A stretch of 64,000 bases of DNA from Escherichia coli O157:H7 (GTDB lineage: Bacteria > Pseudomonadota > Gammaproteobacteria > Enterobacterales > Enterobacteriaceae): NCBI RefSeq assembly GCF_013167455.1, contig NZ_CP038328.1; one strand, written 5' to 3'. Shown here piece after piece: positions 54,901-57,900 of this stretch (within the stretch, counting starts at the first letter, position 1; each line of letters begins with the position of its first letter). Position numbers: made by a program.

Positions 54901-57900
54901 GGAGCAGCCCTGACATCTGCACTGGCTCCGTTCCTGAAGGGGCGCGGAGGGGTTGACGTTGCGTCCCGTATATTACGCAATGCTCTGGTTCGCCAGCTGG
55001 CAATAACACCGCCTGAAATTGCCGGGGATTATCGTATGATTCTGGATGAATCCGGTGTGATGCCTGACCCCATGATGGTTCGTGATTGCCAGAGCTCTTA
55101 CACCCCTGCACAACAACTGCGCTTTCAGCAACGTCTGGATTACATTAACGGCATGCAGGAGTAATATTAATGGCACTTAAATGTCCCGAATGCGGTACGA
55201 CGGCACACGCCAGAACCTCCGCCTATGAAGCACCATCGGTTAAACGCTCATGGTATCAGTGCCAGAATCTTGAATGTTCCTACACATTTACCGCACTGGA
55301 AAGTGTGGATACGATAATCATGAAGCCCCGGCGCAATGAACAGGAATCAGAGAAAGCACAAATGCCGGAAAAACAACAGCAAACTCTCAATCGCTATGGC
55401 TCCGCGTCAAAGCTGTCAAGCCGTCAGCAAATTCCTGTCTGATTAGCAAAAAAAGCCCACGTAATCCCGGTCCAGTACTGGGATTTTTTACGCCTTTTCC
55501 CTGGCTGGCCTGAGAGCGCATGAGTGCATGTCTATAGCGCATGAAAACGCATGATTCTCATGCACCATTTTTGACGCGAAAGCCCTTGTGTGGTGGCTTC
55601 TGAGACGATTTGCGGAATGCATGAAAACCAGTCTGTTAAGCGAAGCGAGCAGGCGTGGGGGGCTGCGCGCGCTAAGGGGTTAGATTATAAAATATCAAAC
55701 GCCGGTGAGATCCATTATTGTGGAACCACCCGAAGGAAGTGTAGAGGCGAAAGTACCCAAAATAATTTTGCAAATTATTTAGAAATGAACTGAGCGCTCG
55801 AAACGAAATATAATTTCGAGCACCCCAATTAGCAGTTATATTTTTAATGTATTAAACAGGATAAAAACCAGAGCTTCCATTCTTATTTAAGTTATGGATT
55901 TTATTTGCATCATTAATTTTTATTTGGAACGTCGGACCTTTATTCTCAAGAATTACAATCTGGAAATTATAGTCCCTTTTGATTAATGCGTGATAAAATG
56001 AATCACTGAGACTGACGCTATTAACATCCGATAGAGAACCCCCTCTATCTTTATCAAAGTGCGTCACTAATGGACTATCAAGCACAACAAATCCAATGAA
56101 TGGATTCCCTTTTCTTGATAAAAATTCCGCAAAGCAAATGGTAAATATAGCATGCATTACTGCACGGGTACCTTTACCAAACATTCCTCGGCGTTTCCCA
56201 TTGATATTAAAGTCATATGTATCTTCGTCAAATCGCACTTTGTTATCTTTAGAATTTTCAAAATTTATATCATTCAAAAAGTCTTGCATCGCTATTTCTA
56301 TATCATACAAATCAGCTACTGTTAAGGAGTCAAAGTCCTCGGCGGAGTATTTAAGTTCGTCAACATCATCTTCTTTATCTTGTAATGAAGATAGAATGCT
56401 ATGTTTTGTGTGATCCATTAAAAGATTGTCTTTATATTCATAAAGTGATTCAAGAGATGAATGTATTGTTTTATATTTTTATCTTCTAACGTCTTAAAAT
56501 CACTTTTTTCTGATTGATAAATTTCATTAACATCATTTTTTCTTAACATAATTAATTCATGTTCGCGAACATTAGATCCGATTGATTCAATTAATCCTTT
56601 CAGCTGGCTTTTGATTTTCAATTTTTCTGCATTACACGACAAAAAACAATCATCATATGATATTTCATTTTCTTTTTTTTGCGGTGTATTACAGAACTCA
56701 CAATAAATATCTGCAAAATTATTTAAATAGAAATTCGCCTGTGATACAACATCTATTCTTTGTAGATCTATAAAGTATTGGTCTTTAAGAAGACTAAATC
56801 TTTCAATGAGTAATGATAAGTATTTTTCCCTGTCACTGATTGAATATAATTCATCACTTAACTCTTTTAATAATTGCTTCTTATCATCAAGTGCATCAAC
56901 AATACCTTTCAATATATCTTTCGATGATTCAATATCTTGCTCTACTTTCTCAAGTTCTCTTGAAACAATGACTTGATCATATTCAGGATAAATTAATTGC
57001 GCTTTCAATTCCTCATAAATATTTGCAATTTGATTTTTTTAAAAATATCTTGCTTTTTTATTTGGTTTTTCTGCTAAGGAGTTAGTATCATCTCTCTGAG
57101 TTAAAAGGAATTTAAATTCAGACTTTCTTTTTGTCTCCTCGCTAGGAATATCAGAAAGAATTAACGACTTCTCAGTTAACACTCTTAATTCATCAATACA
57201 AAAAAATTCAAAAACATTATTAAGATTAAATTTATGAAGAGTATTACTTAAGTTTGTTCTTACTTTAGCCTCTTTGAAATTCAACCTACCATAAAAGTAT
57301 GATGAAAAACTCTTTTTAGACGAAGCACTTTTGGAAAAAACCATCAACAGATTAGCTTCACTAACATTTTCAATGCTCGAATCATATAATCTGTAATGGG
57401 CGCTATCCTGAAGAGACCTCTCAATTGTCATTACCCTACCTTGAAAATTAAATTCCAGATAGGCTAAATCATAACCTTGAGCATGATCGATATCTTTATT
57501 TTTTAGTTTTTCACTCCCTAATAAATATCGAATCAAATAATATATGTATGTTTTTCCAGAGTCAGAACCACCATATAAAATAGTCAATTTAGAACCAAAT
57601 TCAATTATAGCATCTAATTTATTGAATCCGGTTACCTTTATTTTTCTGAACGTAAAAAAATTGTCATTCATAATTAAATTCCATATCATATTTGCCAATT
57701 TTATTTTTTATAATTGATTGCAACTGCTCATCAGGAATATCACTATATAACTTAACCACCAAATTTATATTATGCTCCATCTGCGCAACATATTCATTAT
57801 GTAGAGAATTTGTAAATGCATATGTTTTTTCAGAAGCTTTATATACAAAACCACGATGTGTATAAATTTTTGAGGCTAGTTCATAGCCTTGCAACAAAGC

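Follow-up and report, generated by a model that had tools for sequence, protein, structure and literature searches.

Four cysteines in the middle of a broken ATPase gene

Does the cluster of four cysteines encoded halfway along a broken ATPase gene of Escherichia coli O157:H7 form a hinge of a new kind, or is it a familiar zinc hook with additions? The question arose from an initial annotation of the window, the whole stretch of 64,000 nucleotides of NZ_CP038328.1 analysed here, which took the motif for a possible zinc-hook-like hinge. Translation of the minus strand at 56634-56702 yields CEFCNTPQKKENEISYDDCFLSC, that is CxxC-x14-CxxxC (CEFC-x14-CFLSC), and the motif is thus present as described; the plus-strand ORFs that run across it (56611-56706 and 56657-56773) were rejected as short chance ORFs. 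The ORF that hosts the motif (ORF E, 56418-57008, minus strand) is the middle one of three pieces derived from one ATPase gene. After repair of the reading frame, the protein comprises 606 residues with six cysteines, at positions 158, 324, 327, 342, 346 and 513; those of the motif are C324, C327, C342 and C346, near the protein midpoint at residue 303, as had been proposed. Under random placement, four of the six cysteines would fall inside 23 residues with a probability of P = 0.0023, indicating that the cluster did not arise by chance.

The proposal that three consecutive ORFs (D, E and F) represent a single broken ATPase gene holds with one correction. The first two pieces (57039-57698 and 56418-57008) share one reading frame, which is interrupted by an in-frame TAA (...KKARYF*KNQIANIY...) and not by a frameshift; it is only the third piece, 55852-56418, that is reached via a -1 frameshift, as seen in the six-frame translation. 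The coordinates of all features are collected in Table 1.

Table 1. Features of the Lamassu locus and its surroundings, in window coordinates
Feature	Position	Strand	Basis or remark
psu (54613-55164) and ogr/delta-like zinc-finger activator (55170-55442), one hotspot border	54613..55442	+	
lmuB pseudogene, Rad50-like ATPase of the short Lamassu / ABC-3C type (606 aa after repair)	55852..57671	-	PADLOC, orthologues, fold matches, motifs
Descending coiled-coil helix, residues 339-439	56356..56657	-	model; broken by frameshift
-1 frameshift in A5 run, lmuB codon 398	56476-56480	-	common to O55:H7
Codon 346 (Cys), clade-conserved	56634..56636	-	alignment of 183; first turns of descending helix, 3 residues before E349
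Codon 342 TGT (Cys), private Tyr-to-Cys change	56646..56648	-	Proteus orthologue TAT; Cys in 0/183; O55:H7 also TGT
Apex loop, residues 318-338, joining both coiled-coil helices	56658..56720	-	DSSP on AlphaFold model
CxxC (C324-E-F-C327), LmuB zinc-hook motif	56691..56702	-	183/183 conservation, apex loop in model, 9hqu_A alignment
Ascending coiled-coil helix, residues 233-317	56721..56975	-	model; heptad periodicity
Nonsense TAA, lmuB codon 211 (ancestral TTA, Leu)	57039-57041	-	O157:H7-specific; TTA kept in O55:H7
lmuC, ABC-3C middle component 2, apparently intact	57664..58122	-	PADLOC LmuC PDLC03871, E = 2.5e-36; RefSeq name; MC2 PF20288 on orthologue
lmuA pseudogene, effector with CTD6 docking domain	58122..59127	-	PADLOC LmuA PDLC03852 on two pieces
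lmuA frameshift, codon 136	58723	-	versus intact Proteus operon
lmuA frameshift, codon 15, this strain only	59085	-	one A fewer than in Sakai (GAACAATGGG > GAACATGGG)
P4-type tyrosine integrase, other hotspot border	59131..60363	-	

The ATPase belongs to a short Lamassu operon

All three fragments matched the PADLOC LmuB model PDLC03863, covering profile positions 3-199, 231-412 and 428-608 of 610 with E-values of 8e-50, 2e-21 and 5e-37, respectively. Short Lamassu LmuB proteins have been defined by a length of about 600 residues, a Walker A motif Gx4GK[ST] and a Walker B motif hhhhD[QSTE] (PMC12663957), and the repaired protein agrees with that description in its length and in both motifs (GGSDSGKT and FVVLDS), as well as in a head that, according to the structure model, is split by an antiparallel coiled coil. 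Intact orthologues of the same 606 residues are found in Proteus mirabilis (88% identity) and Pantoea alhagi (75%). The Sakai annotation lists the ATPase gene as a pseudogene, and RefSeq naming refers to an 'ABC-three component system'. NCBIfam returned no match for LmuB, LmuC or the LmuA pieces, and the Pfam matches on LmuB (AAA_15, AAA_23 and SMC_N) were all weak.

The intact Proteus operon encodes LmuA of 335 residues (CTD6, PF20282, E = 4e-29), LmuC of 152 residues (MC2, PF20288) and LmuB of 606 residues. As judged from sequence, the arrangement lmuA(CTD6)-lmuC(MC2)-lmuB is a short Lamassu (ABC-3C) defence operon. For the N-terminal half of LmuA, Pfam gave no domain, and a PDB sequence search with the intact protein returned nothing meaningful; the residues GDKGRD...YQCK in the ORF at 58712-59017 may point to a nuclease of the PD-(D/E)xK or Mrr-like type.

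The fragments of this operon have entered databases as separate proteins, both as PGAP CDS calls and as PHROGs families. PGAP lists the three lmuB pieces as individual CDSs, and intact LmuA matches phrog_22815 and phrog_32369, whose profile lengths of 205 and 138 equal those of the two O157 lmuA fragments; both families were therefore apparently built from broken pieces of one gene.

In the model, the CxxC sits where the coiled coil reverses

An AlphaFold2 model of LmuB was computed from a 28-sequence alignment and its secondary structure assigned by DSSP. Mean pLDDT was 86.6, with values of 69-78 in the apex loop formed by residues 318-338. C324 and C327 fall within this loop, where the antiparallel coiled coil turns back on itself, and C342 and C346 occupy the initial turns of the descending helix. 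Hydrophobic residues follow the heptad period of 3.5 residues in the ascending helix (z = 5.9 relative to shuffled sequences) and more weakly in the descending one (z = 1.5). In a Foldseek search against the PDB, the top matches were chains of solved LmuB (9uxh, 9hqu, 9hqx, 9ux7 and 9nyg), followed by Rad50, and in the family profile alignment the CxxC pairs with the CPMCG hook of Salmonella LmuB, 9hqu_A. The model and the fold matches thus bear out the suggestion that the motif marks the apex of a Rad50-like defence ATPase, with the CxxC at the coiled-coil turn and not in a globular lobe.

The Pfam model of the Rad50 zinc hook (Rad50_zn_hook, PF04423) did not match window LmuB, and in its relatives the profile stayed below threshold, with a best E-value of 1.2e-3 and E ≤ 0.1 in one of 28 sequences and in two of 60 diverse relatives. 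The identification as a hook therefore relies on where the CxxC lies, on its invariance and on its alignment with solved LmuB rather than on the PF04423 profile.

Conservation separates the first cysteine pair from the second

To see which of the four cysteines are retained, we aligned 183 full-length relatives, 26 close and 157 distant, the latter comprising 8 remote matches and the top representatives of a search of 1.84 billion proteins (1386 proteins at E ≤ 1e-30). C324 and C327 are both cysteine in 26/26 close and 157/157 distant sequences. Position 342 is Tyr in all 26 close relatives, and I, V, L, F or Y, never Cys, in the 157 distant ones. Position 346 is intermediate: Cys is found in every close relative (26/26) and in 61 of the 157 distant sequences (39%), amounting to 87/183 overall, and the 96 distant members that lack it have A, V, S, I or L instead. 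The expectation that all four residues would be conserved in orthologues was accordingly borne out for the first pair, failed for C342 (0/183) and applied to C346 in part (87/183).

At the nucleotide level, codon 342 of the intact Proteus gene is TAT, whereas the window has TGT, a difference of one A>G transition that converts Tyr to Cys, and TGT is common to O157:H7 and O55:H7 (CB9615) only. C342 is thus a substitution private to the O55:H7/O157:H7 lineage; it may precede or follow the inactivation of lmuB. A further cysteine in the loop is present in 59/183 relatives and was tested together with C346 as a possible paired ligand set, but the association is if anything weakly negative (OR 0.44, uncorrected for phylogeny); 57/183 relatives have neither residue, and two CxxC motifs in the apex occur in a single one of the 183. 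Since Cys is absent at position 342 in all relatives, C346 is only partly conserved and the loop cysteine is not positively linked to it, there is no conserved four-ligand set. What looked like a tetra-Cys apex is the sum of an invariant CxxC, one clade-level cysteine and one private substitution.

Two features of the same region were seen in the alignment. At the start of the descending helix, after the hook loop, E349 (56625-56627) is Glu in 26/26 close and 157/157 distant relatives, and K352 (56616-56618) is retained in 168/183, forming with position 346 a conserved motif [C/A]-x-x-E-x-x-K for which no function was found in the literature searched. In distant LmuB representatives (e.g. P0145, P0156 and P0178), the apex loop follows a common pattern, CPxCG[AST]xPxxxH...C[DE]G[DN], with a loop His in 146/183 and a third Cys in 59/183 relatives; these residues may be extra ligands or may simply reflect a Rad50-hook-like sequence.

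A known zinc hook very probably accounts for the CxxC

Very probably, C324-x-x-C327 is the zinc hook of LmuB in a decayed short Lamassu operon of prophage Sp2, and C342 and C346 do not provide a second ligand pair. The conspicuous cluster would then consist of the known LmuB hook, a clade-specific cysteine and one drift mutation, all within a pseudogene. Of the mechanism, the observed part comprises the assignment to family and operon, the fold, the location at the apex, the unvarying CxxC and the gene lesions. In an intact system, the loop with C324 and C327 would reverse the antiparallel coiled coil. Judging from Rad50 and solved LmuB complexes, the CxxC pairs of two LmuB protomers would face each other and presumably bind a single Zn2+ between them. 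The hook contact would hold the LmuB dimer at the end where LmuC and the C-terminal domain of LmuA dock. As in solved homologues, the heads would sense DNA ends, upon which LmuA would be released, oligomerise and kill the infected cell.

One reading of the tetra-Cys apex, which the initial annotation would have considered notable, is an intramolecular zinc site (knuckle or ribbon) built from C324, C327, C342 and C346 of one chain; a defence ATPase would then have a hinge of a new type. This reading draws on the low probability of finding four cysteines in 23 residues by chance and on the position of all four at or beside the apex in the model. The conservation data effectively refute it, leaving it a negligible probability: C342 is Cys in none of the 183 relatives and Tyr in the intact orthologues with 88% and 75% identity, having arisen by a single transition in a lineage with a broken gene, and more than half of the distant members (96/157) are without C346. 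In addition, C342 and C346 would be spaced i/i+4 on a helix, presumably an unusual geometry for zinc chelation. The notion of a zinc-hook-like hinge therefore stands for the CxxC, which is present in 183/183 relatives and aligned with the 9hqu_A hook, but not for the CxxxC as a second pair.

Another departure from the plain hook would be an elaborated version in the enterobacterial CTD6/MC2 clade, where C346, perhaps together with H329, would act as an extra ligand or as a redox-sensitive partner of C324/C327, resulting in a zinc stoichiometry or hook stability unlike the Rad50-type 2+2. Among close relatives, C346 is found in 26/26 and His at position 329 in 20/26, Cys at 346 recurs in 39% of distant representatives, the residues just after it (E349 and K352) are invariant or nearly so, and another loop cysteine is present in about a third of the family (59/183). 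However, no third or fourth ligand is fixed family-wide, 57/183 members having neither candidate, the loop cysteine and C346 do not go together (OR 0.44, uncorrected for phylogeny), and the solved LmuB structures have simple juxtaposed CxxC hooks, which makes this explanation improbable. We likewise consider it unlikely that the clade's hook is an enlarged module, consisting of the CxxC, a loop of at least 14 residues, C346 and E349/K352, a proposal that would apply to intact orthologues only. In those orthologues, C346 might supply a third thiol per protomer, altering the zinc stoichiometry or adding redox sensitivity, and together with the invariant E349 and K352 after the hook it could guide mutagenesis there.

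It is also conceivable that ORF E is expressed alone as a 196-residue hook hairpin, for instance as a decoy or a dominant-negative fragment, given that PGAP calls it as a separate CDS (WP_000647284.1). This is highly improbable: the ORF has a TTG start with a GAGG only 2 nt upstream, its borders are set by two lesions of a single gene, one nonsense and one frameshift, and in O55:H7 independent lesions cut the fragment otherwise, so that ORF E is not conserved as a unit. The LmuB hook remains the preferred explanation for the motif.

Relation to published hooks

The zinc hook of LmuB is already known. Published work presents LmuB as a Rad50-like protein that dimerises through a zinc-hook domain at the coiled-coil end; in Salmonella LmuACB, phage defence is lost in a zinc-hook mutant, and in the LmuACB cryo-EM structure two hooks are juxtaposed, adjoining LmuC and the C-terminal domain of LmuA, with Zn not resolved. 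Bacillus LmuB (BcLmuB) has a canonical hook, 285CQYC288, at the distal end, again without Zn resolved in the map. A 2023 review noted 'CPxCG or similar' in many, but not all, LmuB proteins, and a more recent phylogeny (PNAS 2025, PMC12663957) maps CxxC copy numbers of 0, 1 or 2 across the LmuB tree and places the origin of Lamassu in SbcCD. Because hooks, a hook mutant and a map of CxxC copy number have been published, an apex hook in a defence-type ABC ATPase is not in itself notable; moreover, the O157 gene is a pseudogene, and its four-Cys appearance is accidental.

The solved set of the short Lamassu / ABC-3C / DdmC type comprises Salmonella enterica LmuACB (9hqu/9hqx), a type II Lamassu (9uxh), LmuAB (9ux7) and LmuABC (9nyg). 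O157 LmuB resembles these in the gene order lmuA-lmuC-lmuB, a length of about 600 residues, the head-coiled coil-head architecture, a Walker B of the hhhhD[QSTE] type (FVVLDS), an apex CxxC aligned with the CPMCG hook, and partnership with the C-terminal domain of LmuA and an MC-type LmuC. It differs in that identity is only about 13%, the hook reads CEFCN instead of CPxCG, and the gene is broken; its partners are of the CTD6/MC2 types, for which no structure was found. In this clade, at least 14 residues separate the CxxC from the point where the helix continues, which makes for a longer apex loop, and a more diverged one, than in the CPxCG consensus.

Like the Rad50/SbcC hook (PF04423), the CxxC of O157 LmuB sits where an antiparallel coiled coil reverses, in an ABC ATPase of the kind that detects DNA ends, whereas the PF04423 match is not significant, the arms are much shorter (about 85-100 residues) and the partners are LmuA and LmuC instead of Mre11 or SbcD. 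In having more than two apex cysteines, this short LmuB recalls the two-CxxC clades (PMC12663957), but the second pair in O157 is CxxxC, one cysteine of which is a private mutation, while conservation of the other is limited to the clade.

The locus is decaying in O157:H7 and O55:H7

Comparison to the intact Proteus operon (89% nucleotide identity) reveals four lesions in the window, two in lmuA and two in lmuB (Table 1); of the latter, the nonsense codon precedes the hook and the frameshift follows it. O55:H7 is the sister lineage of O157:H7. The copy of strain CB9615 (1929-3748, corresponding to 55852-57671 of the window) shares the codon-398 frameshift and C342 and keeps Leu211; it has lesions of its own, in that codon 155 carries an insertion, codon 214 is a stop and codon 388 is affected by a deletion. 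With lesions both shared and specific to each lineage, lmuB is therefore a pseudogene decaying independently in sister lineages. The dN/dS of lmuB relative to Proteus is 0.115, indicating selective constraint through most of the gene's history and a recent loss of function.

As lmuB is a pseudogene, O157:H7 makes no full-length protein bearing the motif, and the hook mechanism cannot operate in this organism because translation ends 113 codons short of the hook, at codon 211. The Sp2 Lamassu locus of O157:H7 is non-functional and does not belong in counts of active defence systems.

About 309 E. coli records, nearly all of O157:H7, carry the locus at ≥99% identity, and 308 E. coli records match at ≥99% over a 700-nt stretch that includes the stop, the hook and the frameshift. 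The codon-15 lesion in lmuA is the sole difference from Sakai over 3.3 kb; exact matches to the window were, among the records listed, ECP19-598, 17B6-2, G5295 and FRIK1989 only, and PGAP annotates lmuA as 'frameshifted' in a strain identical to the window.

The plasmid collection contained a single near-identical E. coli record, NZ_CP044147.1, in which a dead lmuB copy (34698-36542, 99.9%) lies on a 46.9-kb 'non-mobilizable plasmid'; the record may be a misassigned chromosomal contig.

Setting in a P4-like satellite prophage

The operon lies between the integrase and the ogr/delta-psu-sid genes, and in Sakai it belongs to 'prophage Sp2, P4-like'. A defence hotspot between psu and int has been described for P4-like satellites (PMC9122126), and it is this hotspot of the satellite prophage Sp2 that lmuA-lmuC-lmuB occupies. 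Next to the P4-type integrase, an ARAGORN search over 52000-64000 gave no tRNA gene. Prophage Sp1 and an IS3 remnant lie immediately beside Sp2 in Sakai, and the usual tRNA attachment site may therefore be displaced to outside the stretch. The ogr/delta-like activator at 55170-55442 on the plus strand, about 1.2 kb from the motif discussed here, has a genuine four-Cys zinc finger (CPEC...CQNLEC).
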